A stretch of 64,000 nt of DNA from positions 45,570,001 to 45,634,000 of the forward strand of contig CM059434.1 of assembly GCA_030390025.1 (NCBI GenBank). The letters run 5' to 3'. This document shows, piece after piece, positions 12,721-53,565 of this stretch. Each line of letters begins with the position of its first letter. Position 1 is the stretch's first letter. The position numbers and the translations under genes were made by a program. This DNA comes from Squalus acanthias. Its lineage: Eukaryota. The notes below the pieces were generated by a model. The model searched no databases. It saw nothing but the letters and a program-made list of their open reading frames with translations, and had not been told where the DNA came from.

Positions 12721-13062
12721 AAGCCTTGGATGTGAACATATTTGCAAAACGAAAGAATGTCTTAGTGAATGAAGATGTTTCCCTGGAATGTAAAGTTACC
12801 GGCTATAGAACACCAACACTCGACTTAACAAATGTAGGTGTCCAGTGGTTGTTTGGGCCCAAAAAGGAAGAGATCTTTGTCTTTAATGGAGGACAACATT
12901 TACCAAAAAGACCTGGAGCAAAAATGTCTGAAACCGAATTACAGAAAGGAGATGCTTCACTTCATCTTCCAAATGTACAGTTTAATGAAGAAGGAGAATA
13001 CACTTGTATTGTAATTGTCACTCCTGATCAGGTAGCAAAGAGTTCAGAAATGCAGGTGTCAG
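12721..13062 (+). CDS. NCR3LG1-like: Exon: IgV domain (B7-H6-like)
   Basis: tttag|AAGCC...TCAG|gtaagt, 342 nt; [22 protein letters not shown]. Confidence 0.93.
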
Positions 13063-16000: not shown

Positions 16001-19000
16001 CCCAATTTCCAACAGTGATGGAACCTTTAATGTTTCCAGTAGAATGAGAATTGAACCAACATTGGATGATGATGATAATAAGTACAGGTGTGTCATGAAG
16101 CACCGATCACTTCCTGGTAGTCGTTCACTGGAAACTGTGCTCACAGTGAAAGGTATGTCCTCTTCCTTGCGTAAGATGGGAATATTTTTCAGTGCGCTTT
16201 TGTTAAATCTTACAATTGTTTAAAATGACTTGTGCCCATTGTTTAACATTGAATTTCTACTGAGGTTTTCACCGAATTTAAATCAAGAATTCATCCTTTA
16301 TTACTCCACAATGAAAAGACATTAAGAACATAGATAGATTAATTGAATGGGCAAAACTGTGGCAAGTGGATTTCAATGTAGGCAAATGTGAGGTCATCCA
16401 CTTTCGACCTAAAAAGCATAGAACAGGGTACTTTCTAAATGGTGGTACCCTCAAAAAACTCGATTTTGTCAAACACAATTTCCCTTTCATAAAACTGTGT
16501 CTAATTGTATTGTGATTTTCCGAGTGACCTGTTACCACATTGTTAATAAGAGATTCTAGCTTTTTCCCTATTACTGATGTCAGGCTAACTGGCCTATAGT
16601 TCCCTGTTTTCTCTCCCTCCTTTCTTGAACAGCAGTGTTACATTTGCTACCTTCCAATCCACGGGGACCATTCCAGAATCGAGGGAATTCTGGAAGATCA
16701 AAACCAATGCATCCACTAACTTTGCAGCCACCTCTTTTAAAAAGGGCAGTAGGCCATTAAGTCCACGCGATTTGTCAGCTTTTAGTCCCATTAATTTTTC
16801 CAGTACTTTTTCTTTACCAATATTAATTTGAGTTCCTCACTCTCATTAGACCTTTGGTTCCCCACAATTTCTGTTATGTTCTTTGTTTCTTTACTGTAAA
16901 GATAGACACAAAATATTTGTTTAACGTCTCTGTCATTTCCTTATTCCCCATGAAATTTGTTTTGTCTCTGCCTCTAAGGGGCCCATGTTTACTTTCACTA
17001 ATCTCTTACTTTTTACATACTTGTAAAAGCTCTTACAATCTGTTTTTATATTTCTTGCTAGTTTACTCTCATTCTATTTTCTCCCTCTTGATCAATTTCT
17101 TAGTCATTTTTAAAACCCTCTCAATCCTCAGGCTTACTACTCTATTTCAATAATTCAACATGCAGGCACTATTAATATCTGTGCAGCACTCTGCTTAAAG
17201 TGTTGGAATTTGAATTGACAGCTGGGGCATCATGGGATTGTCACCTGTAGATTTTGTGATTATTCTCTTATTGCAACTGGAGATCTGTCCAAATCGATCA
17301 CTAGAACTCGATTCCACACTATTTAAGCAATTAAAAAGACAATTCTTATTAAAAGGGAGTTCAATTTGCCACGGGAAAACTACTGAGAGTTACCCCAATG
17401 ACATTCACTGTTTTATTGTTGAAAGTTGAAATCAGAGCTGATAACATGGCGGAAATACTGCTCAGAAACTATAAACCTTTAAGAAAAGGAAGCTATGAAG
17501 TGATTTAATAAAAGCTACAGTGAAATCAGTTACATTGTTGACTGGGCCTCTCTTCAGATGAGACTAGCTTCCTAGTCTATGCAGTGAAACTAAAGTAAAA
17601 ATAACTTGCATGAACTTTGTACTCCTATCACGCACTTAACCCCATGGAACTAATAACTAATCCCTTCACAGACCGACTCAACTCGATCTAAGCAAACTTC
17701 TGTGGGCAAACACCCTTGCCTGAATCCTCCCCTCCTCTGATTTTGAACTGTTGCTTGTGCCCTGCTTCCTCTGCTCCACCATGGGAGTGTTTATTCAGTC
17801 AAAATAACTTGAATTTTCTTCCCAAAATCATTCTGCCTTGCTAGTTCCTTCCATGTCTTTGAAGGCCTAATTTAAGAAAATCTTTCCGACCATGTCCTCT
17901 CCCTTATCCCTTTCCCCAATTTTTGCTTTTCATGCCTACTGCCGATCTTGGCCCCTTGTGAATGATCGTTTACATGAGAAGATCCATATAAATGCATTAT
18001 CAAAATCGCTGTCCTGTAGAACTGAACTGATCAGGATTTATTTTAGGTGAACTGCTGCAGATTGTAAAACATGTAACATTAATTATAAGCATATTTGCTG
18101 AGAAATTACACTATTTTCAGCGGAATTTCAGTGTATAATCAGGGTAGCCCTTCCTCTGATTTGCTCGCCGAGTGAGGTAATTTATATATATATTAAAATG
18201 AGGGTCAGTAAAGCTGCATCTCCGAGTTTCCTGCTTTTACACTCCGTGCATTTGGGATAAGTTAGAATGAGAATTATAAGGAATAGTTGTTTCCAGGATA
18301 AGCTGAGACAGGCAGAAGTGAGGAGTTTGTGAGTGTGAAGGTGTGGACAGTTTCAGTCGTGATTTTTGCAGCTATTTGTCTTTTTTTTGCCATTCTGCCG
18401 ACGCAGACCTGAACTTGCTTCTCGCTGCTTCTGACCGTGTGAGACCACCGGGACATTTAAAACCCCACCCCTCACCCAGAGCTAGGGCTTTTCAGGAGCT
18501 GATACGGCTTTTCCTATGGGATGTGCTTGTATGCCATTATCACGGAGTAGGATGAAACAAAGGAGAGTAAGGCAGCATTTGAGGAGGGTGGATCCCACCA
18601 GATATTACTCCCAGTAATCATCACCTGATTCCATAAGTCACACTAAATAAGTGCACTCCTTCCTGTCTAACTATAACCTCTATGAAGAACAAAGTACGAC
18701 GTAAGTGCACATTATATTTTAATGCAACAAAGTCCAAAGTGAACACAAACCAGTCTGCTCTTTCCTAACATTATGCTTCTTGGGTGTCTAAATATGCCTA
18801 TTTTTCTCTTATTCTAGTGCTTCTCCCAGGTGTAACATGAGGGTCAGTATCACAAGAGATAGTTAGCCGCTCATGTTCGACAAAAAGTGGTCCTCCAATC
18901 ATTGTCAGGTTGCTCCTGACAGGGGTCTGATGCTGGATACATCTATGGAGCTTGTTCCTGGGTAGCCTGGTGTCACCTTCTGTGTTCTGTTGGCCTGGTA

Positions 19001-22000
19001 TGTGCAGCTGTTCTGAGAGACAGCAAGATCATGCAGGTCAACTCCAGCCATTCCCATTCCACTAAGCCCTGGATCTGTCCCCACCTCCTCTCCCCCCGCC
19101 CCATGCTCAGGAAGTTGGTTTGCCGGGTGCTATCTATTCTCTTCACTATTGCTACCAGAGCTGTAGTCTGTGCTTCTGTGGAGGTGGAGACACTGACTGG
19201 TCCCTGGCCATTTCTTAGATGGGGGTCTGTTGCAGATTGCAGTGAAACTGCAACAAAGAAAAATACTTCCCTGATGTTGCCACAAGTGAGAGCTGTCGGC
19301 TCAAGTAACACTGTCAGTTGCTGCACATCCTTGGAGACTGACCTTGGAGCCTACACATAGGTACAATGTTCCTTGAACAACTTTATTTTCAGTTTAGCAT
19401 CCATGTGTTCTGGATCCCATGACTCCGAATTCATGGGCAGCCTTCTTGATCCTCTGCTGGGGAGTTGGCCATTCCTCATCCATATTCCCATTCATCCAGC
19501 TTCCTCGTGCTCTATGAATCACCTGGTCACTTCCTCATTAACACTATCTAATTCCTGTCTCCCCACCCACTCCCGTTAAATGTATCTGAGCTGGTGCATG
19601 AAAGTGAAAAAGCAAGTGACACAGGAGATGGGTTTGAGGAGGTTGTGGCAGCGGAAAGTGGGGCAGGAGGTCTCTGCAGGGATTCATAGGTGGACTTTTA
19701 TCCAAATTCATCATCCTCGTCATTTTCATCCTCATCATCAGAGTTCACAGGAAGTAGTTGAGTCTTTGTTCGTCATCACCATCCTCTTCCTTCTCTTCCT
19801 TGTCCTTGTCCTGTGCCCGCCATTGCTGTGATGAATCTGCAGGAATATAGGGAGCAAGCTAAGTGTGGGTGATCGTGTCCTTTGGGATTAAGGAGATAGA
19901 GTAGGACTGGAAGCTTGTGGCTGTATGGTGCTTCATATAGATGCCATGGTGACTGTGTCCGTATTCAGTCACTATTCATATTTGACCCTGAAATGACCTT
20001 CTGACCGACCACATATCCGCGCCATAACTAAGACCGCCTATTTCCACCTCCGTAACATCGCACGACTCCGCCCCGCCTCAGCTCATCTGCTGCTGAAACC
20101 CTCATCCATGCCTTTGTTACCTCTAGACTTAACTATTCAAATGCACTCCTGGCTGGCTTCCCACGTTCTACCCTACGTAAACTTGAGGTCATCCAAAACT
20201 CTGCTGCTCGTGTCCTAACATGCACCAAGTCCCGTTCACCCTTCACCCCTGTGCTCGCTGACCTACATTGGCTCCCAGATAAACAACGCCTCAATTTTCA
20301 AATTCTCATCCTTGTTTTCAAATCCCTCCATGGCCTTGCCCTTCCCTATCTCTGTAATCTCCTTCAGCCCCACAATCCCCCGAGATATCTACGCTGCTCT
20401 AATTCTGCCCTCTTGAGCATCCTCGATTTTAATCGCTCCACCATCAGTGGCCGTGCCTTCAGCTGCCAAGGCCCTAAGCTCTGGAATTCCCTGCCTAAAT
20501 CTCTCCGCCTCTCTACCTCTCTTTCCTCCTTTAAGATGCTCCTTAAAACCTACCTCTCGTCTGCCCTAATTTCTCCTTATGTGGCTCAGTGTCAAAGTTT
20601 GTCTTATAACGCTCCTGTGAAGCGCCTTGGGATGTTTTACTACGTTAAAGGCACTATATAAATACGAGTTGTTGTTGTTATTCAAGTGCCAACCTTTTGC
20701 CGTCAATCTTGCTGGTTCCCACAGGAAGAGCACCAAGCCACTCCATGTGCTGTATGGCTACAATCTCGTAGGGTGTGAGGTTTTCCAGGTTGAAGCTCCC
20801 CTCTCCTGCTGCCTGTCTCTCACTGGCATTGTGTGACATTTTCTCCTGCAAGCAGATTGAATAAATTAGGCGAAGGCTTGCAGTTGAGTGTACGCCAAGT
20901 GGCTTGAGAGACCATGTTGAAGTGCAGGAAAGGTTTTAAGATTGTGCATGTAATTAATGATCGCCAGTTACTGCTGTTCTTAATCAGGGTGCATAGTGAA
21001 AGGTTATTTGTACAGCTGTTACTTTTAGAGGGTTAAAAGTATACTGGTGTCCAGGGTGCCTAAGGAAGAAAGGGGAAAGTGGCTGGTGTGTTACCCTGCT
21101 TGCTCAAGTCAGGTCATTCAACTTTTTGTGGCACTGGCCAGTGCTGCCTCCCTCCACATGCCATGAGTGCCTTCATTGATATGTTTCCTGCCATGGACAC
21201 AAATCATTCTGTCTCTCCTGTGCTTTATTTAATTGAGGAGGGTTTGCAGGTTGGACTCAGCGAAACTGTGGCACCTTCTCTGCCTTGGTCTCATACCCTC
21301 CTTCTGCCTTTGGCTGCCTCTGCTGGGTTCTCCTGTGTTAAACATTCTTGTAAAGTGTCCCAAAAACAGTCAGGTGACATACAGTCAACTCACTAAGTCG
21401 AGCACTGTTCGTTACTTGCCTGCTGCTGCAATCTTCAGCCAGAACTGGCTTTTTAAAGGCTCTACTCTAATTTCCATGCAACACAGCATATTACTCCTGT
21501 TTTGCTCCTCTCTAATGCACATGCAAATGAGCTGACCCATGAAATTGTGGTGTAAATACCTCTCCAGGCCACCGGCAGCAGCAACTTATTTTTCATTGGT
21601 GCAAAAGGAGTGCAATTCACCGCATGAAATTTCTAGGCCATTACTTAGAGGGGACATTAACTGCACATAGTTTCAAATTCTTTAAATACTTTACTGTGTT
21701 TAAGTATCTTCATTTCTAATTTACAGAAATGGAGGAGCACCATAACAAACTCTGTGCAAGTGAAGCAGTTTATTTCTTGTTGCATGTTTTTTGTCTAAAT
21801 GCTTAATGTATTTATGTTTCAAATTTCAGAGCCTGTGAAATCTTCTGCCGCAGGTGCGGTTGCTGGAAGCATAATTGGTACATTGCTGTTCTGTGCACTA
21901 TTGTTTTTTGCTGGATTTTATGCTTACAGAAAATTAAAAAAAGGTAATGTGTTGACTGGTGAAACCCTTTTATTGTACAATAACTATGTGTGTATTTGTG

Positions 22001-25000
22001 TTCTTGTAATTCTTTGGCTGCTTATTGCATGTTTTCCCCAAATTAGGTTGTGGTGGGCCTTCTCCTTGAACAACAACAGTCCTTGTGGTGATTGTGCTCC
22101 CATAATGGTGTTAGATAGACAACCTGGCCTGGAGTTTCCGCTTTGGGCGCAATTGGCAATCCAGGTGCAATTGTGCCTAAAATTCCACTAGTTTTGAGAA
22201 GTTGTATTTTTTCTCCTGTTTCTGATCAAACTCATTTGCATTTCACCAAACGTAAAATCTGCCGTGAACCAGCGCAATCGGGCAGCATTTTGGAATGTAA
22301 TTTCTTTTCTTTTTTAACTTTGCTTTAAAAAATATTCCTTGATGTTTTTAAGTGTGGTAACTTGGTGCAGTTTGCTTAATACAGCTGAAAATGGCTTTAT
22401 CACAAAAAATAAGCATTTTTAATCAGTGCCTGGGCCCACCACCTGTGAGTAATCCAATTTTGAATAACTGAAAATTGCTTTTAAAACTATACAGGACCAT
22501 TTGCTAGTTATATTGGTGTACAGTAGACAGTTTCTTAGTAAATTAAAAATAAATTATATTCAGAAGCTTTGAAAACATGCCTATTGGTATCCTTGCTCCT
22601 AAAAAAAAGCTTAATTTTAAGAGCCTCCTTGAAGGCCTGCAAATGGGAGCAATTAGGGAAACTTGCAATGGTGATGAATTCACTCTGGGGGCGTGGCCAG
22701 TTTTGTGGGCGGGGCTGGCTTCTTGTACAATGTTTTTTAAGCTAGCGCAAAAGATCGCGGAAACTCGCTTTGCATTGGATGTAATTTGCACTGGTTTGGC
22801 CATTTTCGGACGAATTGTGCTGAAAAAAACAGCACAAACTCACGGAAACTCCTGCCCTGTGTTTACATACACCATGGCCCGTATTTTCCGATCAGAGGCT
22901 TCCTGCATGCGAATGCCTCCGATCTGGAAAAAATCTACACCCTTACCTGAGGGCTCCAGAGGTCCGGACATTTCCGCTCCTGGGCCTCTCCGACTGCGCG
23001 TGCGCAGAGTCCCAGGGGCGCAGGCGGTTCGCAAGCGTCCCTGGGATCACGTGGGCCATGGGGAACCAATGGAAGAAGGGAATCCCCCTTCATATTTTTG
23101 ACACGTCTCTCACCTGACGAAGGAGCAGTGCTCCGAAAGCTTATGATTTCAAATAAAGCTGTTGGACTATAACCTGGTGTTGTGCGACTTCTCACATCTG
23201 TCAAATATATGAATGCGGATCACTCAAAAAACACAATACTGTAAATCCATTTTTTTTTAAATCACGTTTTTAAAATTAGTTAAAATTACATTAAATTAAA
23301 TATTTTAAACAAATTTAATTTAAAAAAAAATTAAAGTTTTTTACTGGGCTAAAAATAAACTTGCCTTTTTTAAAAGTATTTTTAAATTATAAATGAGTGA
23401 AAAAAATTTTCTTTTTAAACTCTTTTGCTGGTAAAAGCAGGTCTTACGCCTGCTTTTACCAGGTGTAAGATTTTTAAAGGTTTTCAGCGGGCGGAGGTTC
23501 TGCAGAAAGCGGAACTCTCCACCCACAGAGGCCCTTCTCCAGGGCAGGCGGATGATCTGTCAAGAGAATTCTTGACAGATCGGAAGTGCCGGTTTTCAGC
23601 ACATGCACTTCGCATGCCTGAAACCGGCACTTGCGAGGCCCCTACAGGTGTGTACACAGCTCGTACACAGCCATAGGGATCGGAAAATACGGGCCATTAT
23701 CATGTCTTGTATATACACTTCTACCTGTAGTCCTAGCAAGAAAATAAAGCAGAGTAAACAAATGAGAACATTTCGATTGTCAAATTTTAATTCACTTTTG
23801 TTTTGATTAGCTACTCCCAAAATTACTGAATTCAGCATTCCTCTCGACATTCGCCATTTTGAGGTAGCCGTCATCCGTTGCCAAATTACCGGATTTAGTC
23901 CACAGGGGATTAGACTTGCTTTATTCTTAAAGAGGAAGGGGAATGAAAACCAAAAGAAAATCTTTTGCTGGAATAGTATGGACCAGATCGCAAGAACCAA
24001 GTAAAAACAAAGCACCACGGAAAACTAGATGAAGTGCAGCTTCTTATGAATGGGTGTGAACAAGATGCATTCTTTAAGTCCTTGGAACCGGAATATGAAA
24101 ATAACAGTGACGGAACTTCCAATTTAAAGTGCGATATCAAAATGTATCCTGATTTATACAGCGATGATGGGGCTGAATTAACTATTGAAGTTCAACATAT
24201 AACTCTTGCGTCACCTGTTCGGAAAACTGTAACACTGGATGTTAAAGGAGGTAAATCATGAACATTTGCACTTAAGCATTAATGGTGCAGAAATTCTGAT
24301 CCCTACGGGTGTGTACGCGCTGTGTACTCACCCGTAGGGACATCGGAAATGCCGGTTTCAGGCATGCACTGCTCATGCGCTGGAAACCGGCATTTCCGAT
24401 CTGTCAAGCTTGACAGATCCTCCGGCTGCCCGGGAGAAGGGCCTCTACGGGTGGAGAGTTCCGCTGTTTGGAGACCCTCCGCCCGCAGAAAACACTTACA
24501 ATTCTTGCGCCTGGTAAAAGCAGGCGGAAGGCCTGCTTTTACCAGGATAAGAGTAGAAAAAAAGTTTTTTAAAAATTCCACTGATTTATCATTTAAAAAT
24601 ACTTTAAAGAAAGGTTTGTTTATTTTTAGCTCCGTTAAAAGCTTCGATTATTTTTTTCAAAAAATAAAATCTTTGTTTAAAATACTTAATTTATTGTAAT
24701 TTAAAGTCATTTTAAAAATGTGATTTTTTATTTAAATTTATTTAAAGTTTTACTATGTTTTGGGGGTGATCTCCATTCATATATTTGACAGGTCTTCCTG
24801 TCAAATGTATGAAGGGAGATTCCCTCCTCTGATTGGCTCCCCATGGCCCACGTGATCCCAGGGCGCTGCGAACCACCTGCGCCTCTGGGATATGTGGGCC
24901 CTGCACACCGGCAGTTTGGAGAGGCCCAGCAGCGGAACTCTGCGCCTCCCGGGAGCCCTCCGGTCTTGGCGCAGATTTTTCCAGATCGCAGCCCTCCGCC

Positions 25001-28000
25001 CGCGGGAGGCCTGCGATCTGAATTTCTGGGCCAATGTTTATGCTATGTGATTCTATTCTTTTTTGTTAACTTGTGTATTTGTGCATATGAAGTGACATTC
25101 ATGTGGTTAATAGTGGTAATGCAGTTCTGCCATCTGTAGACTCTAAATCATAGAAAATTCAGACAGCAAAATAATATTTTCTTGCTCTTATTAACTCGCA
25201 AAAATTCTTTTAGTTTAAATAAGTGATTTCTTTGTTTTGTTTTTCTTTCCCAAAGTGCCACCAAAGATTTCAAACATTGTGGTGCCACCTCACACCAATC
25301 ATAATGAGTCTGTGGCCTTGGCTTGTCCAATCAATGGATTTAAACCAAGACCATTAAGTATCAAATGGCAACAAATCGGAAAGAATAATGATTTGAAAGA
25401 AATCATTCAGCTGGATAAGAACAACAGAACAATCTTTCCTAGTGACAAAGGGAAGAAGTCCAAGTATCACCATTACATCAGTGAGATGGAGTATGTCGAC
25501 AAAACATACAACATCACCAGTGTACTAGTTATTGTGCCAGATATACTGCAAGACCAGGACACGAAGTTCATCTGTGAGGTACAGCATGAGTGCACCGGCA
25601 GTGACCAACAGAGAGAAATAATTCTGAAGATTAGAGGTATGTAATATTTTTGACAATACCTTGTATAGAACAATGGATTACATTTTGTTTCCAGATACTG
25701 TTTCCTTGTTTTTTGTAATGCAACAAAATTGCTAATTTTATTTGGCAAATCCTGTGAAGAGTGACATGTCCTCAGCGCTGTATTTCTTTAATAACTCCTT
25801 GAGGACAGTGATACTTTTACAAGGGAAGTATTCAGAATGCATCCAAGAATATTCAGAACTCAAATATTTAACAGGGAAACATATTAGCTGATTGCCCTGG
25901 AGTCACTGATTTAAATGAGCTTCTTGTGTAACTTTTTATTTTATACTTGGGTCTTATTTCAGAATTTTCAGAACACAATGGATTAAATTTTCTGGTTATT
26001 GGCTGTGGATAGGCAGAGAATCTAGCCCACAATATCTCTAATCTGCTTGTGTAAAGCCTGCGGTAATTTTCTTTTTGTGTGTGTTTTTTCCAGCCACTCC
26101 AAAACTGGACCCGATAAAGTATGAAGCAGAAAAACTAGTTGCAGAAGAGGCTGTGACTTTAAACTGTCGAATACATTCTTTTTACCCCAGTGAAATCACA
26201 GTTACATGGCTCAAAAATGGTGAGAAAATGACAGAAGAATGTGAAGTTAGTGTGGCAACTCTGGGAAAGGATGGACTCTATTACTTGACAAGTAGTGTGA
26301 AGATTGTACCTACCAGAGCTGATGTTGAGAAGAAATACACTTGTCAAGTAGAACATGAGAGCCTAACAGAGCCATTGGAAGCTGACTGGGTACTCGGTAA
26401 ACTGGGTAAGTAAACAAGTTCTGACCAGAGTATAACTATTACTATTTTTTTCTGAACATTTCTTATAAAAACATGTAGGGCCATAACTTGCTGTGGCAGG
26501 GCATCTAACGGCATCTGCTGTTAGTTAGATTTGCCCTTGTATGTTTTAGGTTTTTAAATTTTTAGCTTGGCAAGTTGCTGGAAGTGCGAGCTGATATCAC
26601 AGCGAGGGAAACCAGGGCCTGAATTTTCCCAGTCCCAAGCGTGTGGGTTAGTGGCGGGTCAGCAGTAAAAATCGCCGAAATTTCCAGTGTGTCGGCAACC
26701 CGCCAACTTCTGCATTTAACTCGGGCACGTTTCCCAGCGTGCCACAGACCCGCTCGGCTGAGGCGGGTGACCTCATTGAAGTGCTTAAATGCTTGTTGAG
26801 AGACGCTTAAGAGGCTTTTTAACAGCAGCTTTTAGCTTTAACTTCTTGAGCACAGAATTCACACACCTCGGGAACCTCGCCTGTGAAGGGCAGGCGGAAG
26901 CTCAGTGGCCATTGTGCGAGTTCATGAAGTGACCGCATTGCACTCACCTTTCCTGACCTCATGAGATCCTTGAATCTTTTCCGGCACTGGAGCCACATCC
27001 TCCTGACCACATCCCTGCTACTGACCTCCTCTGCAATCTCCAGCCATGTCCTTTTGTGTCTTTGGTTGGTCGTTTGCGTCGATCGCCAGGGAAGAGGACC
27101 TCCCTGCGTGCTCTTACTGCCTGCACCAGAACTTCCAGAGAGGCATCGTTGAATCTCGGCGCGGCCCTCTGCCTCGTTTCCATGACCCACAGTTTTATCA
27201 CATTATTGAGACCTCTGGAAATCACGTTATGCACTCCTACATCAATCTTCAAATGTGATGTGTGCAAGGCTGCTTTAAATATCCGCGCTGGAAACGAGTG
27301 ATCGATGACGTCATCAGAACCGCTCCATTTAATTGGGCCAGGAAACACGCATGGCTATTTTAATTGGAGCTATCCAGTAAAACGCGCAGTGTAGAACGCG
27401 CTGTTCACATCTTTGGGCTACGCGGCCCGCACGCACACAACCCGACTCCAAGGTAAAGATTCCAGCCCAGGCATTTGGGACCTGAGTGAACAGGGAAAGC
27501 AAATGTGTATCTCCTTAACCAATCAGATTGAATGATAGTGAAATTAACAGTGCAAGGTCTGAGCAGGAAATGTAAATTAGAGTGGGTGAATTCAATGTCA
27601 ATCAGGTACAGAAAGAAAGGGAAAGAAAGTTTGGATTAAGAGAGAAAAAAGAGACAAAATAAAAGATTTTAAAAGAAATTACATTTAAAATTTTACATTT
27701 TTAAAATATCCAACAATTAATACCTGAAGGAATGAGACTCCACACTTGTAATAGTTATTTTTCAGTGCCAGTGAGGTTGATTGGCCGTAATTAACACGTT
27801 ATTAAAAGAGTCTCAGACAGCTTAAAACGCTCCCTTTGTCTGAATCCATGCTTAATTAAATATGCATGGACCTTAAATGGCTCCAAGATGGGGTCCTTGC
27901 GTCACTTCAGATCAGCCCTAACTTTCTGTGCGGGTTTAGTTCGGATCTGCTGCACAAATACAGCAACTCCACGCCATTCAGTGCATTTCAATGGTGAGGC

Positions 28001-31000
28001 AAACGGCGAGATGCCCTTTTTGTGAAGCTAAAGGCAACTCAGACAGCAACTTTTGGATTTTTGAGTTTAACCACGCCTCTACCCCTCACCTGAAGTTGCT
28101 GTACAATTTGAGCATAAATAACAGTGAGCGCCGTTAAACTCATTGTTATTTTGAGAGCAAAGTCTGGGCATAATCGACTAATGTGTTTAATTGTTCTGGT
28201 TTGATTTAAAAATGCATAAATTGTAATAATTTGTTAATTGGGAAATATTAATAATCTGAAACTAATATACAGATTTAAGTTGGTGACTAACAATTCTACT
28301 GGGCAGTTTCAGCATTGGCAAAGGTCTGTTCGTGAAGGCCCATGACCTGGAGTGATCCGATTGGAGACAAGGGGAATAAAGAAACCAAAATAAATTAAAT
28401 TGAAATCTTGCTCTCACCCAAAAATAAAATTACCTTGGTTGTTTTTTTGATATTTTAGCAAACTGAGAAAATCCGAGTTGATCTTTTTGCAGTCTGTGAA
28501 AAATAATCCATTTGGGGTACTTTTTTGGTCTGGAAGAGCAAACAATAAAACAAAAGCCCAGAATAACAGAACAATAATACGAAAGAAAAACCTTGCATTT
28601 ATAGAGTTCATTTCCTATCCTATTTAAGTCCATAAACACTTGATTGCTCATGAATTAGTTTTGAAGTGTAATCTTTGTTGTTTTGTAGGCAATTTGTGCA
28701 GAGCAGTGTCCCACAAACAGCAATGTGATGAGTGACCAGTTAATCTGTTTTTTTGGTGATTTTGTTTTGAGGGCGAAATGTTGGCCAGGACATCAGGAGA
28801 AGTCCTTGCTCTTTGGATAAGTGCAATGAGATCTTTAATGTCCACCTGAAGAGGTAGACAGGGCCCCTTTCAGTACTGCAGTGCTCTTTCAGTATTGTAC
28901 TGACCTGTCGGCGTAAATTATTTCCTCAACTCCTGGAATGCCGCGAGAACCCAGACCACCTTCAGTGGCAAGAGCAGTACTGCTGAACCAAGCTGAATAG
29001 AGTTGGAAAGGATTGTTTGCAGCTCCCTATTAGCTCATTGGGAAAATGCACCACCCGATTCGGGCCTGAGCCATAGAGAACTGTAAGGTTGCAAGTCTGA
29101 TCCCTGAGTTTGCTGATCTCCGCTAGGTGGAGTGGTACAATCTGCCTCGGCCCCCATGGACTAGCGAAGTGAAATGTCACTGTCAAATGACCCCTGTTGC
29201 AAAGTGTGTGTGGATGCTTATTCGGTGAATGCAGGATCAGGCTTGAATAGCCTCCCAGTACTCCGTTCAGTCTCTTGGCCACTTCCAAGAGATACTGGAG
29301 CATTGACTGCAGCCATGGCCTGTACCACAGTGTGAGGGAAGAAAGAGGGACAGAGAAAAAGGATAGTTATTCAAGAAATCAATGTTTAAAATTAATCAAG
29401 GCATACTAGACATTTTTTTTTAAATTGTGGTCTTTTCTCAGTTACACAATCTCTAACACTGTTTCTTTTGTACGAGTAGTGTCGATGCCAAAGGTAACAG
29501 AAATTAAAACCGATCCACTTTACCCAGAGGTGGGAAAACCTGTAACACTGTCCTGCAAAGCAAAGGGCTTCTTTCCAGAAGATCATCAAATATTCTGGTT
29601 CAAAGCGTTTCAGAAAACTGATGATGGAATTGAAACAGAAGAAATTGAATTTGATGAAGAAACTGGTTTGTACTCTCGATTCTCCAAAAGGACATTCATT
29701 CCAACTGATAAGGACCATGGACAAGAGTTCAAAATGCAAATCCTTCACTCTGAAACTTCAAACAAGCCTGTCTCATCCAGTCATTTTTTGAAAATAAAAG
29801 GTAAATATTGTTTCAACAAGAAGTGCAACTTCATAGTACCAATTATGGAATGTTGAAAAGATTGTTTTGTAAATGGACAGATTTAAGTGTTTCAAATTCA
29901 TTAAATTAACATTGTTTTTATTAATAGAGGCTGGTAGTCAGGTAGGACAAACACCACAGGCCTAAACTGATAGCATATTGGTGATTGTTGAGGATAAAAC
30001 ATTATTTTATTAACGCTGCATTGTGGCCATAAGTCCTTCAAACATTCAGTCTTTGTGTTTATGTTGAAGATGATGATAGCTTTGCCATTGGAAGCCCAGG
30101 CTTTAACTACCTCTTTTGGTGATCCACAATACCTTCAGTAACTGTGCCACCCCACTTACATTCCTTGTTTGCCTGTGACTCCAGAGTTCCTCTCAGTGGC
30201 TCCATTGGCCCTAAGTTGGTGGTATCCCAACATAGTTGTGATTATCAAATCAGCAGCATAAATGGTTTGTAAAGTAAAGAGTGTAAAAAATGTCATCACA
30301 ATCTTTGAAACAAAGGCCAGAATTTTTAAGTTTGGACCCGGGGGAGTGGGCAGTAAAGCGCTGGTAAACCTGGAACTTAAGGTTTTAACTCCACAGCGTG
30401 CATTTGGCATCATGGACAGGTTCCCCGCCTGGAAGTCAGCCTGATTGACAGGCTGGATTCCAGTCAGACGAGAAACGCTGGCGAAGAGGCTGCAACCACA
30501 GGTAGGTGCAAGCTCCGACCCCGGGTGAGGGGGGAGTGTCTGATCCCCGTCCCCGGGGGGTGGGGGGAAAGTCCAATCTCCGACCCAGGGGTTGTATGGG
30601 TGGGGGGCGGGGGGGGGGGGAGGTGATGGTGGGGGAGCTGGGGGCCGGGAGGATGCACTCCTGCTCCTCCCGGCCCACAAGAATTGCTCCCCAAGGCTGT
30701 CCTCTCCTCGCTGCAGCTGCCGGGAATCCCAAGGCCCGGGAACCCCAGCCAGCCACAGTTAAACAAGCATAGCAGGTTTAATCTGAGACTGCTAGCCTCA
30801 TTATATAAAGTGCCAACCTGCCTCCTGGGAGCGGGTTGGCTGCCCGCCACCACCCCCCTCCCCCCCCCCCCCCCCGTCCTCCCTCTGTTAAAACTGGAAG
30901 TGGGTGGGTTGGAGGCAGGTAGGGGTCGGGATTCAGGTTTTTAACACTTTAACCTGCCACCCGACCCCAACCCACCTGTGTTTTGGGGTTAATATTCCCC

Positions 31001-34000
31001 TCAAAGCCTAAGTTGCACAATGATAGATTTGATGGCTGCTGTCATCTTAAATATCCATCATTTGGGGAAAAAAAGACAGTTCTTTTTAACCTCCCTTTTT
31101 GATCCTTAACCATGAAGGTTATTCAGTATTGTAATCAACTGTGGTTTCATGCAATTTAAACAGGAATTCCATCTGTTGAAGACATCAAACTTGACCCACC
31201 AGAAGCTGCTATATATGGTACAGATCTTGCTCTCATCTGCAATATCAGTAACTTTTACCCACAAAATATCCGTGCATTTTGGATGCAAAAAGAAAAACCG
31301 ATAGTCAAAGGGATCACAACTAACGGACCTGAGAGGGAGGAAAATGGATGTTATCGGTTGTCTTCCCACTTGCAAGTAACACCAACTGCACTAGATTTTG
31401 ATCAGGATTTTTCCTTCCGTGTGGAGCATGATAATTTAAAGACTCCAATTGTAAAAAAGGCATATTTAACACTTCCAGGTATGTTTCATCCTGATCCTTC
31501 TCCCCTCCCACCACAGTTTGAAAAATTCCACTTTTATATTTAAATGTTTGGGATTATTTTGTGAAGGACGGAGGCAACCCATCGGCCCCTTTCTGGCTGG
31601 GATATCCAGGACCAAATCATCCGCCTGCGGTACCAGTGAGCACAACCCGAATTCCCCTTTCAACATTTGTCCCACACCTTACCTTCCCTCTGTTACTGAT
31701 CATCACAGCATCCCCTTGGCCACAATGCTGAAATAAAAGCCACCACAAAGCAAACTTTCCAATCCAACTTTATCCATATATGCATCCAATATTACATCAA
31801 AAAGAAGGTAGAGTGATGTGGATGTGATGAGTGGCACAGCAGGATGGGGTGTGGCTTTGCAGTAATGTTTCGTGATCCATTGCGATCATTGAAAGGTTTG
31901 TGCCACTGCTTGTGCTCCCCTGTGCAATGTGCAACCAGGCAGTATTGGTCTCCTGGGGAGGTCTCTTCCGCCCATTGGAAGGGAAGAGGACCTCCCCATG
32001 TGCTGTGACTCTCTCCATAAGCATATGGAGGGAGTCATGGGAGAGCCTGGGTGCAGCCGTGCCCCTCTGTGCAGTGCTTGTCAGTGTTTGCAGCACCTCA
32101 ATGCTGTAGAACACTGACAGCACAAATGTCAAAGTGAATTTGCGCATGGTCCCTTTAAGAAACCGGTTGATGACGCCTCATCAAATGATGTCATCAGACC
32201 CGCTTCCTTCAACTGGACCGGGAAACGCACTGGGCAGGCATAACAAGCCCAATCAGGGGAAAGTCATGTCGGAGGCCATGATGGAGCCAACAGTGAGGCC
32301 GCGACCCGCCACTGACCTTGCCCGCCACGGACCCGCTGAGGTAGGGAAAATCGTGGTCTGTGTTTCTATGATTTGTATGAGTGCTGAAGCACTTTTAGCA
32401 TTATTTATCTGAAGAAGGCAGCTCAGCTTTAAGTGCTGCAGACTGCTTTGAAGAGGAGCAGGCTAGCTTTTATGTAAATATGTGAGCTGTATATCTACAG
32501 AAAATATTCCAATAATTCTGATGACAGTAGTTTTGCAGAACAGGTTCATGAGATCTTAATTAATTTTCTCCATAAATAATTTGTGTATATTACAAACTAT
32601 ACAAGCACCCTTTCTTTTCTTTTTATTTTATTCACATTAAAACTTAATCAGTTTGCTTCAATGGCTAAACACTTATGTACTTTTTATTTGTTTTTTCAGC
32701 TTTGTCTCCTGCCTTGTCCGTTATTAAAGCTGATCCCGAACTGCCTGGCGTTAATCAGCTTACAAAACTCAGTATCTCATTGACAAGCTATGCTCCTGCT
32801 GAAGTCCAAGTAAAGTGGTTTAAAAATGGGATACCTTGTTCGGATGTGATTAACAGCCCTCCTGTGATTGCAGACGATGATCTCTTCTCGTCAGTTATAA
32901 GCACACAATTTGTTGCAACTGAAAATGATCATGATAGTTTCATCAGATGTGAGGTGCTTCACATAGCAACAAAGGAAATTCAAGAGAAAGATTTCAAATT
33001 GCTCCTTAAAGGTGAATGTTTTATTGGAGTCGGATTTAAAGCAAACCATTTCATTAAAATTGTTATAACTGCAATATTGATTGCTTTGATTTCAACAAAA
33101 CAGTAATTTGAATGTTTATTTCACATTGAGATTTTATATTGAATAAACAATTTTTTTTATTAATGCTGAGAATAGTTAATTTTGGGTGACTTCAGTTATT
33201 TTCAATACTATTAGATGAGTTAATTAATGCTCTTAACATTGGAAGTGCCTATTTAATTTGACTTATGTCAAATTTAACTCATTTGTTTTTCTGTTCAGAT
33301 TGTGCTGAAAATGAAGATGATGCGCTTTATAGCAACATAACAAAATATGAAGGTAAAGTGTTCATTTTGAGAGGTTCATGTTTGGTTGTAATCCATTGTG
33401 CTGTCAGTGTGGTATTTCAGATTATTTGTAGAATAACCCAGATATTCCTATTTAGGTGGGCAGGTGTGGGGTGCTGTATGCCAGCTGCCAGCCCACTTCT
33501 GTGCTCGCCCAATATTCTGACTTTATTTCTGGCTGTTGGCAGAATCACCCACCCTAAATGGGCTGTTAAAATGAGGCTGTGATGACATCATGGATTCCAT
33601 TCTCCATCATTACTGCCTTATTTACACTCAGTACACAATGGCTGTCTAGGGTTGCTAGATGCTGGGGAAAAGACAAACATGCATTTAAAGAGCCAAATAC
33701 AGATATAATTAAAGCTTTGAAAAATCCTTATTTCTTCAGTGATTTTGGATTTTTTTGCTGTTCCTAATGTTTTACTCTCTGCCATTTGCCGATTGTCGCC
33801 ATCTTCAGGCAAGACACAACGTAGGTTTCTAATTGGGGATTCCCCTCTACCTTTTGCTTCCTAGAAGAGGAGAGTAGGGAATCCAGGTTGGTGAGGCTGC
33901 ACTGGAAACCCATGAAATGTACCCACCAGTACCCCACACCTGACGATAGAGGAAGAGGTGACACTATCTGCATTTGCCCAAGGAAGAGAAGGAGCAGCAG

Positions 34001-37000
34001 CAGAGGCCTGTAGATAAAGTAGAGCATAACCTTTTCCTAGCTGCAGCACATATTTGTGCTATATTGGGACAATAGCGGGGGGGGGGGGAAATTCGGTCCC
34101 TTTGGGACGCTAACTTCCCCGCGCCTGAAATTCACTGATAGCGTCCCAAGAGGGAGGCGGGACGCTACTGGAAGCGCTCCCCCTCCCTCTTGGGGCGCTA
34201 CCAGTGAATATCGCGTGCGACGTGCCGTGGTACTGCAGGCCTTCCTCCCCTTAGGGCGCTAACGGGAGGCGCAAAGCAACCGAATTTTGCCCCCTAGGTG
34301 TTCTCTTGACTACCACATCTGGTCATTGCACAACCAATCTTGTGCACATTTTTTTCCCCCACACCCTTTCCCATGCGCATCAACTCACACAGTTTTCATT
34401 CATGCCATCTGAACAAATCCATTTTCAAATATTGCTGTGGACAATGTATGCACACACAACTTTAATGCAACCATAGTTTTAATGAAACCCTGTATAGTGT
34501 GTGTGCATGCACCTTTTCCTAGGGGCCATCTGAGTGGTAAGCTGGTGTGAGGTGGCTGGATGCTGTGTCAGTATAAACCTCAGGGCCTGCAGTGGCTGTT
34601 TCCACAAGGCAGGAAAGTTCTGAGATGGACCTGCTGTCGGCTGCACCTCTTCTGCTGTGCCTGAGAAATTTGGCCCTGCTTCCTTTCTCTCATGTGCAGG
34701 CATCTGAGGGGCTGGCAGGAGGGCATGCACGTGCTGCTGCCCATAGAGACCATCATCTGAATGCATTCCTGCCATGCTGCCAGCACTGGGCTGTGGCTCT
34801 GCATGGTCACTGGTCTGCAGGAAAGCAGATCTATCGGTAATAGTGAGATTAATAAAGATCCATGAGATATCCCTTCCCAATCTGACGCCTCAGACCTCTA
34901 TGGCAGCAGTCTGAGCAACCATGAAAGAATTTCTGACTGCTCTCATGGCCTCTGTCATGTGGTCCCCTCTTCAAATGTTCCAAAGTAGACTGCAATGCAC
35001 ACAGTGGACTCCTCCAGTTTACCCATCATCTGCTGCACAGTTTCTGACACTGTCTTTGGCGTCTGCACATACGTTTAATACCCTGCAAGCATCCTTTTAA
35101 AAGCAAGACTCCTGAGATCATGATCACTTGGCTTTTGAGCCAAGGGGCAATGTATCCTGATCCTTCAGTCAGTAACTTCTTCCGCCTCACATTCCACGTT
35201 GGCTCCTCCAGCTCACTTGTGATCTGTGCATTACCCAATGCACTCCCCTTACACTCAGTCTGTAATGGATGTCTCTGGCCTGGTGTTTGGGAGGGAGAGA
35301 ATGAGTGTTAGTTTGTACTCTGCAGTGCTGGCAGGGCTGGATGCACTGGAGTCTGGCTCACCATATTCAGAAACACCTAGATAAAGAAAAGAGAAAGACA
35401 GCTTAGAATAGAATCTCAGGAATGGAGCTCGTATCAATTTCAGTGGAAAGAGTAATAGGGCTGTCATGATATGCTTCACTGAGGATTAATGCAAGGTGCA
35501 ATAGGAAGAGTAGAATGTCATGACTGTTGGCAAATACCCTTTTACCTTGCTGTCTCTATCACCCAAAGTACTTCACTCAGAATCTGCATGGCTTCCTCCT
35601 CATTGAAGTGGTAAGTTTCAGGTTTGGGGGGCCGACCAACTTTGCTGTTTTCTCCTGATTATAAGGCTTGTCTGCTTGAAGAAATCATGCAAAAAGTGAG
35701 AATGACCTCTTGCTCTTATGATATGCAGTAAACCCCACGGATCAGAATGCAGACAATAATGGGTATGCTGACAGCTGCAAGGCAGGCAGTATAAAAGGCA
35801 CTGCACTGCTTCAAATGTCAGCTTGGATCAGTGGTAGCACACTCGCCTCAAAGTCTGAAGATTGTGGGTTCAAGATCCATAAGAGCTTGAATACATAATC
35901 CAGGCTGGCACTTTAATGCAGTACCGAGGGAGTGACGCATTGTCAGAGATGCTGTCTTTCAGTTAAGATGCTAACCGAGGTCCCATCAGATGTAAAAGAT
36001 CCCTGGAAATAGTAGATGCATTGCTGATCATCTTCCAACATTCGATGGGATCTGGAACTGTACCCATGGATTGGAGGGTAGCTAATGTTACCCCACTATT
36101 CAAAAAGGGTGGTAGAGAGAAAGCGGGGAATTACAGACCGGTAAGCCTGACATCGGTAGTGGGGAAAATGCTAGAGTCCATTGTAAAGGATGTAATAGCT
36201 GAGCACTTGAAAAACAGTGACAGGATCGGACAAAGTCAACATGGATTTACAAAAGTTAAATCGTGCTTGACTAATCTACTGGAATTTATTGAGGATGTAA
36301 CTGGTAGAATAGATAAGGGAGAACCAGTGGATGTGGTGTATTTGGACTTTCAGAAGGCTTTCGATAAGGTCCCGCATAAGAGATTAGTTTGCAAAGTTAA
36401 AGCACATGGGATTGGGGGTAAGGTACTGACTTGGATAGAGAACTGGTTGGCGGACAGAAAGCAGAGAGTAGGAATTAATGGGTCTTTTTCCAAGTGGCAG
36501 GCAGTGACTAGTGGGGTACCGCAGGGATCGGTGCTAGGACCCCAGCTATTCACAATATATATTAATGATCTAGACGAGGGAACTAGATGTAATCTCTCCA
36601 AGTTTGCAGACGACACAAAGCTGGGTGGGTGTGTGTGCTGTGAGGAGGATGCAGAGAAACTCCAGTATGATTTGGACAGGTTGGGTGATTGGGCAGATGC
36701 ATGGCAGATGCAGTATAATGTGGATAAATGCGAGGTTATCCACTTAGGTTGCAAAAACAGGAAGACAGATTATTATCTGAATGGCAATAGATTGGGAAAA
36801 GGGGAAGTGCAACGAGACCTGGGTGTCCTTGTGCACCAGTTGCTGAAGGTAAGCATGCAGGTGCAGCAGGCGGTTAAGAAGGCAAATGGTATGATGGCCT
36901 TCATAGCGCGAGGATTCGAGTACAGGAGCAAGGATATCTTGCTGCAGTTATACAGGGCCTTGGTGAGACCACACCTTGAGTATTGTGTGCAGTTTTGGTC

Positions 37001-39123
37001 GCCTTATCCGAGGAAGGATGTTCTTGCCATGGAGGGAGTGCAGCAAAGATTCACCAGACTGATACCTGGGATGGCAGGAATGACGTATGAAGAGAGATTG
37101 GGTCGATTAGGCTTATATTCGCTAGAGTTTAGAAGAATGAGAGGGGATTGCATTGAAACTTATAAAATTCTAACAGGACTAGACAAACTAGATGCAGGAA
37201 GGATGTTCCCGATGGCGGGGGAGTCCAGAACCAGGGGTCACAGTCTAAGGATAAGGACTAAGCCATTTAGGACTGAGATGAGGAGGAATTTCTTCACCCA
37301 GAGAGGGGTGAGCCTGTGGAATTCTCTACCACACAAGGCAGTGGAGGCCAATTCATTAAATATATTCAAGAAGGAGTTAGATATATTTCTTAAGGCTAAA
37401 GGGATCAAGGGATATGGGAAGAAAGCAGGGACAGGCTACTGAATTTGGATGATCAGCCATGATCTCATTAAATGGCGGAACAGGCTCGAGGGGCCGAATG
37501 GCCTACTCCTGCTCCTATCTTCTATGTTTCTTTTCTTTCTCATGGATATTGATGTTAGGGCTGTATTCCCTGGAATTTAGAAGATTAAGGGGTGATTTGA
37601 TTGAAGTTTTCAAAATATTAAGGGGAACGGATAGGGTAGATAAAGAGAAACTATTTCCGCTGGTTGGGGAATCTAAAAATTAGAGAAGGCCTTTCAGGAG
37701 TGAAGTTAGGAAACACTTCTCCACGCAAAGGGTGGTAGAAGTTTGGAACTCTCTTCTGCAAATGGCAGTTGATGCTCGATCAGTTGTTCATTTTAAATCT
37801 GAGATTAATAGATTTTTGCTAAGCAAAGATATTAAGGGATATGGGGCAAAGGCGGGTATATGGAGTTTGGTCACAGATCAACCATGATCACATTGAATGG
37901 CGGAAGAGGTTCAAGGGGCTAAATGGCCTACTCCTGTTGCTATGTTCCTATGGTAAGCTATTCAAGCACTTTAATACAGTTAGTGGAAGTGGTTATAAAG
38001 TGGTAGGCAAGCTTAGTAGAGGGCATTCTTGGCTGGCTTCTTGTAACTTACCTGACCTGGTGAGGTTATTAAACATTTTGTGGCATGGAGTGACTGTGTG
38101 CGAAATAGTTGAATTCATACTGACTGTCCTACTTATCTCCTGCGGCTCTCCTTTTGTCTGTTCCCAAAGGGTGCTATTTTCATAATTGTTTCAAATTTAA
38201 TAAATATCTCTGATATGGGAAACATTTTTTGCACATATGTGAATAAATTATACCAACAATATAACTTTTAACTATTTTTAAAATGTTACGGTATAGCACT
38301 GTAATCTCATACTTTCATAGTCCCCAATTTGAAAATCAGATTTCCTTCTTATTTCTGCATTCTTGAATATTTTACTTGCTTCCCTCTTCCATGGCCCCAT
38401 CTCCATTATCCCTTCAACTCCAAGTCTACTTAACAAAGACAGGAGGACGGCTGGATGGTCTCTGGCTGCTGCTATGGTCGTTGTTATTTTATTGGCCTCT
38501 CTTCTTGGACATCAAGGCTCGTGATTTATGGAGGGGCATCCGTGACTCTTGGTAAAATGGCTCATCTCTCGTAGAACATTCCATGGCCATGGTGTACGTC
38601 TCCTGATTCCAAGCTTTTAGGCAGGAAATGCCAATTGATGGCTGCGTTCAAATGTCAGAAGTAGCTGGGATTAAAATGAAATGTCCCTAGTCTAGGAGTG
38701 CAGAGCTCTGCTGCTGGAACCAGCAACTTTCCTTGTGCTTTCATTATAAAATCAAATCTATATTTTTGTCACATTATTAAGGGTTTTGCATTATTTATTT
38801 CAAATTTTATTCCAACAGATAATTCTCAGGAGATGTCGGACATAACTTGCCAAACAGAAAATCCTAAAGCTGACCAACCCGTAACTCTTTCCTGCACTGT
38901 TAAAGGAGTCGCCATAGCAGATGCTCACATCACCTGGTACAGAGAAGTTTACCCCATTGAAGATGTGAGCTGTATTGAAAACACAGCATTTGCAACTGGT
39001 AAAGGTTTCACCACTGCACTCACGTATATACCAAGGCAAGAAGATGACAATCGTCTGTTCCAAATTGATGTTACCACTGAGATGGACCCAGTTAGCAGAT
39101 ATTTCAACCTGAAATTAAGTTGA
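12721..39123 (+). CDS. NCR3LG1-like: B7-H6/NCR3LG1-like receptor gene (multi-exon span): IgV-IgC1-TM-(IgC1-like)x6-Tyr micro-exon-IgC1-like; leader exon not located; one exon frameshifted
   Basis: 11 coding exons, each with an AG acceptor; the first ten end in GT donors, all junctions phase 1. V and C1 motifs closely resemble B7-H6 (RPGA...GDASLxLP...GEYxCxVxVTP; GFYP...WEK...NxDGTFNV). Confidence 0.8.
13175..13320 (+). mobile_element. Decayed tRNA-derived SINE
   Basis: A/B-box-like TCATTGGGTTAGC...GGGTTCTAATGC. Confidence 0.4.
14260..15360. repeat. Polypyrimidine minisatellite (TTTCTCCTC(CTC)GTCCCCCCC)n
   Basis: Direct tandem unit of ~18-21 bp; the Pro-rich and GDEEK ORFs are repeat translations. 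Confidence 0.95.
15832..16152 (+). CDS. NCR3LG1-like: Exon: extracellular IgC1 domain
   Basis: cag|CTCAACCA...AAAG|gtatgt, 321 nt; [29 protein letters not shown]. Confidence 0.93.
16322..17150 (-). mobile_element. Rearranged CR1 ORF2 fragments (short + piece at ~16322-16447, then - strand)
   Basis: ORF 16594-16791 GLKADKS...[14 protein letters not shown] matches the CR1 ORF2 elsewhere in the window. Confidence 0.75.
19975..20680 (+). mobile_element. L2-like LINE 3' fragment
   Basis: LADLHWLP...[12 protein letters not shown]...GPKLWNSLP; (GTT)n tail. Confidence 0.85.
21830..21943 (+). CDS. NCR3LG1-like: Exon: transmembrane helix and basic stop-transfer
   Basis: tttcag|AGCCT...AAAG|gtaatg, 114 nt; [38 protein letters not shown]. 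Confidence 0.9.
22126..22857. mobile_element. MITE-like TIR element
   Basis: GGCCTGGAGTTTCCG...CGGAAACTCCTGCCC imperfect inverted termini. Confidence 0.6.
22876..23695 (-). mobile_element. Harbinger-like MITE, family A copy 1 (contains a Penelope tail at ~23104-23198)
   Basis: Perfect TIR GGCCCGTATTTTCCGATC / GATCGGAAAATACGGGCC; homologous to 24284-25032 and 39223-39901 in the opposite orientation. Confidence 0.85.
23811..24250 (+). pseudogene. Exon: first post-TM Ig C1-like domain, disrupted by a 1-nt frameshift
   Basis: ttag|CTACT...GGAG|gtaaat, 440 nt (3n+2). The first half ATPKI...[11 protein letters not shown]...ARTK stops at TAA 24002-04; the second half (...[13 protein letters not shown]...LTIEVQH...TLDVKG) is in another frame. 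Confidence 0.8.
24284..25032 (+). mobile_element. Harbinger-like MITE, family A copy 2
   Basis: Flanked by AAT/AAT duplication; colinear with 39223-39901. Confidence 0.85.
25256..25636 (+). CDS. Exon: post-TM IgC1-like domain 2 (both Cys)
   Basis: aag|TGCCA...AGAG|gtatgt, 381 nt; [20 protein letters not shown]. Confidence 0.88.
26094..26405 (+). CDS. Exon: post-TM IgC1 domain 3 (both Cys)
   Basis: ccag|CCACT...CTGG|gtaagt, 312 nt; [28 protein letters not shown]. Confidence 0.92.
26616..27468 (-). mobile_element. Harbinger-derived Myb/SANT element nested in a larger TIR element (~26478-28168)
   Basis: [15 protein letters not shown]...EVLFP / [28 protein letters not shown] split over two frames. 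Confidence 0.75.
28590..28995 (-). mobile_element. tRNA-derived SINE, decayed
   Basis: Reverse-strand similarity to the SINE at 35815-36003. Confidence 0.5.
29480..29800 (+). CDS. Exon: post-TM IgC1-like domain 4 (F-strand Cys lost)
   Basis: tag|TGTCG...AAAG|gtaaat, 321 nt; [22 protein letters not shown]. Confidence 0.88.
30314..31001. mobile_element. GC-rich MITE-like element
   Basis: GGCCAGAATTTTTAA...TTAATATTCCCC termini; abrupt GC-rich island in an AT-rich intron. Confidence 0.5.
31164..31478 (+). CDS. Exon: post-TM IgC1-like domain 5 (F-strand Cys lost)
   Basis: cag|GAATT...CCAG|gtatgt, 315 nt; [20 protein letters not shown]. Confidence 0.88.
31560..32358 (-). mobile_element. Harbinger-derived Myb/SANT element (same family as 10286-12006)
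   Basis: Very similar text to ~11430-11990; ORF 31797-32147 [12 protein letters not shown]...AWLHIAQ. Confidence 0.75.
32700..33011 (+). CDS. Exon: post-TM IgC1-like domain 6 (B-strand Cys lost)
   Basis: ttcag|CTTTG...AAAG|gtgaat, 312 nt; [24 protein letters not shown]. Confidence 0.88.
33299..33352 (+). CDS. Micro-exon: acidic tyrosine-motif linker [18 protein letters not shown]
   Basis: Polypyrimidine tract, ttcag|AT...GAAG|gtaaag, 54 nt, phase 1-1, open in frame. Confidence 0.75.
34078..34294. mobile_element. Short MITE (GGGGGNGAAATT family)
   Basis: GGGGGGAAATTCGGT...ACCGAATTTTGCCCCC inverted termini. Confidence 0.7.
35815..36003 (+). mobile_element. tRNA-derived SINE 5' part, interrupted by CR1
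   Basis: A-box TGGATCAGTGGT and B-box GGTTCAAGATCC. Confidence 0.6.
36004..37530 (+). mobile_element. 5'-truncated CR1 LINE with an uninterrupted 473-aa RT ORF
   Basis: [23 protein letters not shown]1 3'UTR and tail; start nearly identical to 63422-64000. Confidence 0.95.
37551..37952 (+). mobile_element. CR1 3' fragment (second subfamily)
   Basis: [20 protein letters not shown]; tail CTATGTTCCTATG. Confidence 0.85.
38819..39123 (+). CDS. Terminal exon: degenerate Ig domain 7 (F-strand Cys lost), stop TGA
   Basis: acag|ATAAT; [19 protein letters not shown], ...FNLKLS*. Confidence 0.82.
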
Positions 39124-44015: not shown

Positions 44016-44016
44016 T

Positions 44017-44034
44017 TGTCGAGCCAGGCACGGT
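44017..44034 (+). promoter_or_regulatory. Putative primer-binding site (tRNA-Arg-like, degenerate)
   Basis: TGTCGAGCCAGGCA directly after ...CAACA-T resembles TGGCGAGCCAGCCA, the complement of a tRNA-Arg 3' end. Confidence 0.5.
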
Positions 44035-51438: not shown

Positions 51439-51483
51439 ATGGAGAATAAATGCTGCATTTGATTTTATTTTAACTGGAACAGG

Positions 51484-53563: not shown

Positions 53564-53565
53564 TA

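Follow-up and report, generated by a model that had tools for sequence, protein, structure and literature searches.

The window analysed here is a stretch of 64,000 nucleotides of the Squalus acanthias genome (G000:C10:45570001-45634000). It contains one plus-strand gene, and our finding concerns the 3′ exons of this gene. Two exons code for immunoglobulin (Ig) domains upstream of the membrane segment. D1 (12721..13062, edges read from the sequence) is a B7-H6-like IgV exon (Pfam V-set, 4e-10) and D2 (15832..16152) is an extracellular C1 exon (Pfam C1-set, 5e-9) with a conserved sequon at 16029. Then follows the transmembrane (TM) exon (21830..21943), which by its translation ends in the basic stretch RKLKK; a TM helix is also predicted at this place in the orthologue model.

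Seven further Ig exons lie downstream on the same strand. The first, D3 (23811..24250, translation), has a long loop with the acidic dileucine motif DEVQLL (24028..24045), a predicted AP-adaptor sorting signal in a low-pLDDT segment. D4 (25256..25636), D5 (26094..26405), D6 (29480..29800), D7 (31164..31478) and D8 (32700..33011) all match the Pfam C1-set, with E-values of 3e-9, 3e-20, 2e-8, 5e-13 and 9e-8, respectively, and pass the cut-off of the profile PF07654. An acidic linker exon of 54 bases (33299..33352) with the tyrosine motif YSNI (33328-33339) precedes D9 (38819..39123), the last Ig exon, which includes the stop codon. D9 was recognized from its translation; it has weak Pfam Ig matches only and stays below the PF07654 cut-off (18.1 of 21). 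For D3, which was scanned as two halves, there was no Pfam C1 match. The window also contains LINE-type reverse-transcriptase fragments at 36000-37500, within the intron between D8 and D9, and at 56712-57746, downstream of the gene. A degenerate LTR retroelement, identified by eye, occupies about 42300-53900, that is 3 kb downstream of the gene, and shows gag zinc-knuckle-, pol-, integrase- and env-like stretches with many stops and frameshifts.

The GT..AG joints from D2 through the 33299 exon are borne out by RNA-like contigs. D2 is joined to the TM exon in 4/4 runs (16152>21830), the TM exon continues into D3 (21943>23811), and D8 is joined to the linker exon in three of four runs (33011>33299). 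A single contig of 2887 bases from run X23 carries D2-TM-D3-D4-D5-D6-D7-D8 in this order. Thus, the exons behind the TM segment belong to the same transcript, at least in a close relative; that the runs are RNA is a guess backed by the GT..AG joints. Their sequences deviate by a few percent from that of the window, and relatives or paralogues are a possible source. D9 is joined in annotated orthologues, and its splice joint lies outside the stretches that were compared with the RNA-like contigs. An acidic Tyr-x-Asn like that of the linker exon is found in several sharks only. Since it is not conserved beyond these, we leave it out of the mechanism proposed below.

The copy in the window has a defect which the sequence-only reading missed. 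The D3 exon is 440 bases long and one base short near position 23991, which leads to a TAA at 24002-24004; the dileucine motif lies downstream of the frameshift and LTIEVQH, a motif discussed below, lies in another reading frame than the start of the exon. The extra base is present in five exon copies on contig C1615 and in 6/6 RNA-like runs. The frameshift may be a real null or short-tailed allele, or it may be an assembly error. If real, the product would be a V-C1-TM protein with a short tail devoid of the dileucine motif, or the allele would be null.

A leader exon of this copy was not found between 2 and 12.7 kb of the window or in the 40 kb upstream. A genome search with the leader of a paralogue gave two matches, both on C1615, where the paralogue has a signal-peptide-like leader exon. 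There is an assembly gap at 1487-1986 of the window with flanking CT-rich repeats, and the missing exon may lie there. In the whole genome, C10 and C1615 together carry 11 B7-H6-like V exons, some of which may be haplotype duplicates. In the paralogue at G000:C1615:38583-77525, a D3-D4-D5 cassette is repeated several times at a spacing of about 3 kb, with some cassettes interrupted. A joint from D5 back to D3 occurs in 5/6 RNA-like runs and matches these cassettes; back-splicing would give the same joint. Two further members are located at G000:C1615:187864-211170 and 309389-357100. One of them is divergent (47% V identity). The other, on the minus strand, is a close copy that has a leader exon and appears intact. 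A large cluster of V-set exons at G000:C26:79896-7588618 is 31-40% identical to the query V domain and possibly butyrophilin- or MOG-like.

Sequence comparison identifies the gene as a cartilaginous-fish orthologue of B7-H6 (NCR3LG1). Human B7-H6 is the top PDB match of D1 (E = 4.6e-14; the next family, B7-H3, follows at 3.7e-9) as well as of D2 (3.5e-13, with an IgG chain close behind at 9.9e-13). The V-C1 part of the AlphaFold model of orthologue P0004 superimposes on human B7-H6 with a TM-score of 0.86-0.89 over the target and an rmsd of 2.4-3.3; a structure search with the whole model returned mostly generic multi-Ig chains. The human gene order is RPS13-NCR3LG1-KCNJ11. In S. acanthias, a Kir gene on the minus strand, about 85 kb downstream, has KCNJ11 as its best match (2e-84). 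The RPS13 side of the synteny is weak, as the RPS13-family match 0.5 Mb upstream is one of three similar matches.

The architecture V-C1-TM-(Ig)n is shared by homologues from sharks, rays, a chimaera, sturgeon, bichirs, coelacanth, lungfish, amphibians, squamates, turtles and a crocodilian, and two marsupials have homologues with only D3 and D5 in the tail. Many of the reptile and amphibian proteins carry the NCBI name NCR3LG1. There was no teleost, bird or placental with this architecture among the named proteins, and of the unnamed matches of the wider set only 30 were given names. The Gag-homologous tail of human B7-H6 is absent here, the tail being made of Ig domains in the Pfam scan. Because marsupial and reptile proteins named NCR3LG1 have Ig tails as well, the Gag tail is not a family-wide feature of B7-H6. 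Between chondrichthyans and tetrapods, the tail is 29-37% identical and the ectodomain 36-39%. The tail is therefore under long-term constraint.

The sequence-only reading had claimed that the canonical pair of B- and F-strand cysteines is lost only in domains after the TM segment. In the window gene, both domains upstream of it do keep the pair (at 12789 and 13005 in the V domain and at 15900 and 16089 in the C1 domain). All five motifs named as replacing a cysteine are present in the sequence. The F-strand position is taken by Ile (ATT) in LTIEVQH of D3 (24178-24198), by Met in FKMQILH of D6 (29728-29748), by Phe in FSFRVEH of D7 (31409-31429) and by Ile in FQIDV of D9 (39058-39072); in D8 it is the B-strand position which is Ile (LSISL, 32768-32782). 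These replacements are all hydrophobic, as had been noted, and they are almost always so in the orthologues. D4 (25324, 25573) and D5 (26165, 26342) have the canonical pair. Other Ig hallmarks were said to persist and mostly do, but D3 has Phe instead of the C-strand Trp, and D9 is without the F/YxP and the His. As D3, D6, D7, D8 and D9 do not have the B-F disulfide feature of the C1-set, they are best called C1-derived. Taken by itself, this gene (0/2 domains before against 5/7 after the TM segment) does not give a significant difference (hypergeometric p = 21/126 = 0.17). The support for the pattern comes from the orthologues.

In the close set, with per-domain profiles on 70 homologues and three unrelated matches dropped, both cysteines are found in 63/63 copies of D1, 64/66 of D2, 0/67 of D3, 42/42 of D4, 72/72 of D5, 0/72 of D6, 26/66 of D7, 0/55 of D8 and 16/44 of D9. 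The two exceptions in D2 belong to one divergent frog protein. With one protein, chosen by us, for each of 39 genera, the counts are D1 39/39, D2 39/39, D3 0/39, D4 22/22, D5 36/36, D6 0/39, D7 11/37, D8 0/36 and D9 13/30; as the sequences are related and the genera not independent, none of these counts represents independent trials. The genera with a complete D7 pair are mostly amphibians; amphibian D7 has both cysteines. D9 has lost the B-strand cysteine in salamanders and a bichir and the F-strand cysteine in elasmobranchs and frogs, and D3 lacks the B-strand cysteine as well in rays, some sharks, sturgeon, lacertids and marsupials. The cysteine loss is thus ancient and domain-specific.

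For the B7-H6 orthologues the claim that the loss is confined to the tail holds. It does not fully hold for the wider set of look-alikes, that is, proteins of <2300 aa with one called TM segment plus one IgD control. Here both cysteines are present in 216/224 domains before and 188/368 domains after the TM segment, and the eight exceptions before it are five B-Cys-to-Ser changes in frog-type look-alikes, two V domains and one fragment. The distant frog, bichir, coelacanth and lizard proteins P0097, P0110, P0145, P0152, P0114, P0160 and P0131 form part of a wider group with three to more than ten Ig domains behind the TM segment; in several of them canonical and Cys-less domains alternate.

Could the losses simply be the decay of a dying gene copy? 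The one-base frameshift in D3 of this copy would fit, and so would a pN/pS near 1 among the copies of the genome (0.95 after and 1.40 before the TM segment in young S. acanthias copies, small counts which are uninformative). However, intact orthologues from chimaera to crocodilian lack the same cysteines in the same domains, and the replacing residues keep their hydrophobic character. A frameshift in one copy cannot explain such a pattern, and the orthologues refute decay as its cause; we give this explanation practically no chance. An old divergent paralogue beside the gene (G000:C10:45650141-45671231) keeps both cysteines and the Trp in D3 and both cysteines in its last domain, and its D7 has lost both. 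The retention in D3 and in the last domain suggests a piecemeal loss from canonical ancestors. Proteins like this paralogue are found in a sawshark and in lungfish. In a quick domain tree, most domains group by position; its base is weak and does not decide whether the tail arose from D2.

The fold appears to be kept without the cysteine pair, as had been proposed. AlphaFold predicts Ig sandwiches also for the domains without it: in an orthologue model, all nine domains have the predicted Ig fold with a pLDDT of mostly 80-90. D3 alone, modelled from an in-frame paralogue copy, is predicted as an Ig domain with a pLDDT of 88.9 and matches the C domain of B7-H6 with a Z-score of 11.1 and an rmsd of 1.8 over 97 residues, tied with other Ig folds. 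That the disulfide is dispensable was the second part of this proposal. It stands for five domains but not for the whole tail, since D4 and D5 keep both cysteines as strictly as the ectodomain does. Dispensability is therefore domain-specific.

This retention in D4 and D5 is also what one would expect if the tail were cytosolic but its cysteines were redox-active, with buried B-F disulfides in D4 and D5 and alternative pairs in the other domains. The pattern would then reflect rewiring rather than simple loss. Extra conserved cysteines do exist in the E-strand of D3 (29/39), in the A-strand of D9 (30/30) and at two positions of D6 (27/39 and 24/39), and titin provides a precedent with buried cytosolic disulfides and a CysB/F/G triad (PMC5766482). 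Yet D6 of the window has a single cysteine, and some paralogues have lost a D4 or D5 cysteine. Moreover, the B-strand cysteine of D6 (72/72) and the F-strand cysteine of D8 (55/55) lack a partner and are nonetheless invariant. The remaining core cysteines are therefore likely packing residues, and the complete pairs of D4 and D5 may or may not form a disulfide. We consider redox-active pairs rather unlikely and prefer a tail in which the B-F disulfide is simply not needed.

Such a tail, D3 to D9, sits most likely in the cytosol, which assumes a type I topology deduced from sequence features. The TM segment is placed between D2 and D3 or D4 in 121/126 homologues, and the other five are gene models without a TM exon. 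Its C-terminal side is the more positive one in 104 of the 121, and a later hydrophobic segment was found in 1/67, a two-gene model. Both the positive-inside charge and the conserved dileucine motif support the cytosolic topology independently.

An alternative would be that the domains act outside the cytosol, either in a secreted nine-domain isoform which skips the TM exon or through an inverted topology, and that disulfides were lost as in some extracellular Ig domains. The five gene models (5/126) that join D2 directly to D3 or D4 point in this direction, as do the 8/224 look-alike domains without a cysteine before the TM segment and the sequons of the window gene, of which six lie in the tail and one before the TM segment. 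But the TM exon is present in every RNA-like joint among those listed and none skips it, and the charge bias, the lack of a second TM segment and the conserved dileucine motif do not fit. Neither do the many unpaired cysteines; non-canonical cysteines per 100 aa amount to 0.07 in V, 1.1 in D2 and 0.8-3.3 after the TM segment. The sequons themselves occur at 1.33 times the expected number before and 0.98 times after the TM segment (32 of 36 proteins with a called TM segment). Their density is higher before it in 33/39 genera, and two D2 sequons are conserved (24/39 and 18/39), while no column behind the TM segment exceeds six genera. The sequons of the tail, which had been listed as a neutral or mildly contrary caveat, are indeed at chance level and unconserved, and the caveat is therefore removed as far as sequence can do so. 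We hold a location outside the cytosol to be very improbable. The observation of the sequence-only reading as a whole is confirmed and its interpretation supported.

New here is the dileucine motif in the D3 loop, for which the sequence makes a trafficking role likely. The loop varies in length and sequence and has a low pLDDT. Nevertheless, [DE]xxxL[LI] is found in it in 23/40 genera against 2.2 expected by shuffling, and in 27/40 against 2.7 if Met is allowed; the motif had been noticed by eye before testing and the genera are not independent. Further D3 domains have the strict motif in 16/52 cases (2.7 expected). Over whole domains and with Met allowed, D3 has it in 30/40 and every other domain in 2-9 of 22-40. 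The strict motif is missing in 17/40 genera, including most amphibians and the bichirs. A conserved sorting-signal consensus is thus found in an exposed, disordered segment on the presumed cytosolic side. D3 is also the domain which is usually retained in shortened forms, and it is tandemly repeated in some chondrichthyans. Tandem expansion of a single domain was seen for D6 in Mobula P0001 (six copies) and for D3 in Heterodontus P0094 (seven) and Callorhinchus P0102 (three).

We suggest the following mechanism. The seven Ig domains behind the single TM segment of the shark B7-H6 orthologue would fold in the cytosol, a compartment in which they could do without the B-F disulfide. The acidic dileucine of D3 is predicted to bind AP clathrin adaptors. 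AP-dependent sorting could then limit the surface level of what would be an NKp30-type ligand, and D4 to D9 may serve as a docking scaffold of variable length. We consider this overall reading quite probable. Normal cells carry little human B7-H6, and HCMV proteins direct it to lysosomes (PMC6514059). This makes a control of display plausible, though it is no evidence for the D3 motif. One may go further and imagine the ancestral jawed-vertebrate B7-H6 as a receptor with a cytosolic C1-Ig sensor array. Through the dileucine loop of D3, this NK-cell ligand would be kept from the surface as long as its rapidly varying Ig modules have not been engaged, oxidised or cleaved by pathogen or stress proteins, and placentals would have replaced the whole module with a retroviral Gag. 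This extension is speculative, and we consider it unlikely.

The Ig-tailed B7-H6 is real and ancient. The known C1-set domains belong to adaptive-immunity proteins that are extracellular or luminal. A cytosolic tandem array of C1-derived domains on a membrane protein, retained in lineages as far apart as chimaeras and marsupials, would place this fold in a new setting. It would be a natural experiment in Ig folding without the disulfide, of relevance for the design of intrabodies, and human B7-H6, the tumour ligand of NKp30, would have to be recast as a derived form. The short D3 motif, in turn, has a proposed role in surface display which is directly testable. In databases, these proteins are named uncharacterised or NCR3LG1. 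Within the literature covered by our searches, no paper describes a B7-H6 with Ig domains in its cytoplasmic tail, and the passages covered of PMC11599192, PMC12227049, PMC13262535, PMC9231431 and PMC10751288 do not mention an Ig tail; an earlier description may nevertheless exist.

Among known systems, human B7-H6, the NKp30 ligand, is the closest. It shares the V and C1 domains and the single TM segment with the shark protein, is the best PDB match of the ectodomain and has KCNJ11 as neighbour. Its tail is Gag-homologous with ITIM, SH2 and SH3 motifs (PMC2715080). The shark tail, in contrast, consists of seven Ig domains of C1 type and has a dileucine loop, and the shark has many paralogues. 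The Ig domains of titin are of the I-set and part of a soluble filament, whereas those of the shark tail resemble the C1-set and are attached to an immune ligand in the membrane. The shark tail and the titin I-band both have Ig domains in tandem, of which a part retains CysB and CysF, and both have extra conserved cysteines; in titin, CysB is present in 43% and CysF in 42% of the Ig domains (PMC5766482). Acidic dileucines similar to that of D3 are the [DE]xxxL[LI] signals of HIV/SIV Nef and LIMP-II. Such signals act in cytosolic tails via AP adaptors; that of Nef is located in a loop which lacks structure although the protein itself is folded, has variable flanking residues and occurs as LL, LV or LM (PMC2173715). 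There is no homology of these proteins with the D3 loop, and for the latter AP binding is a prediction. Finally, shark UrIg2 and IgD also have long tandem C1 arrays grown by exon duplication (PMC12227049). Their C1 domains, however, precede the TM segment and keep both cysteines, namely in 7/7 detected domains of IgD and in 10/10 and 12/12 domains of two multi-C1 elasmobranch proteins.
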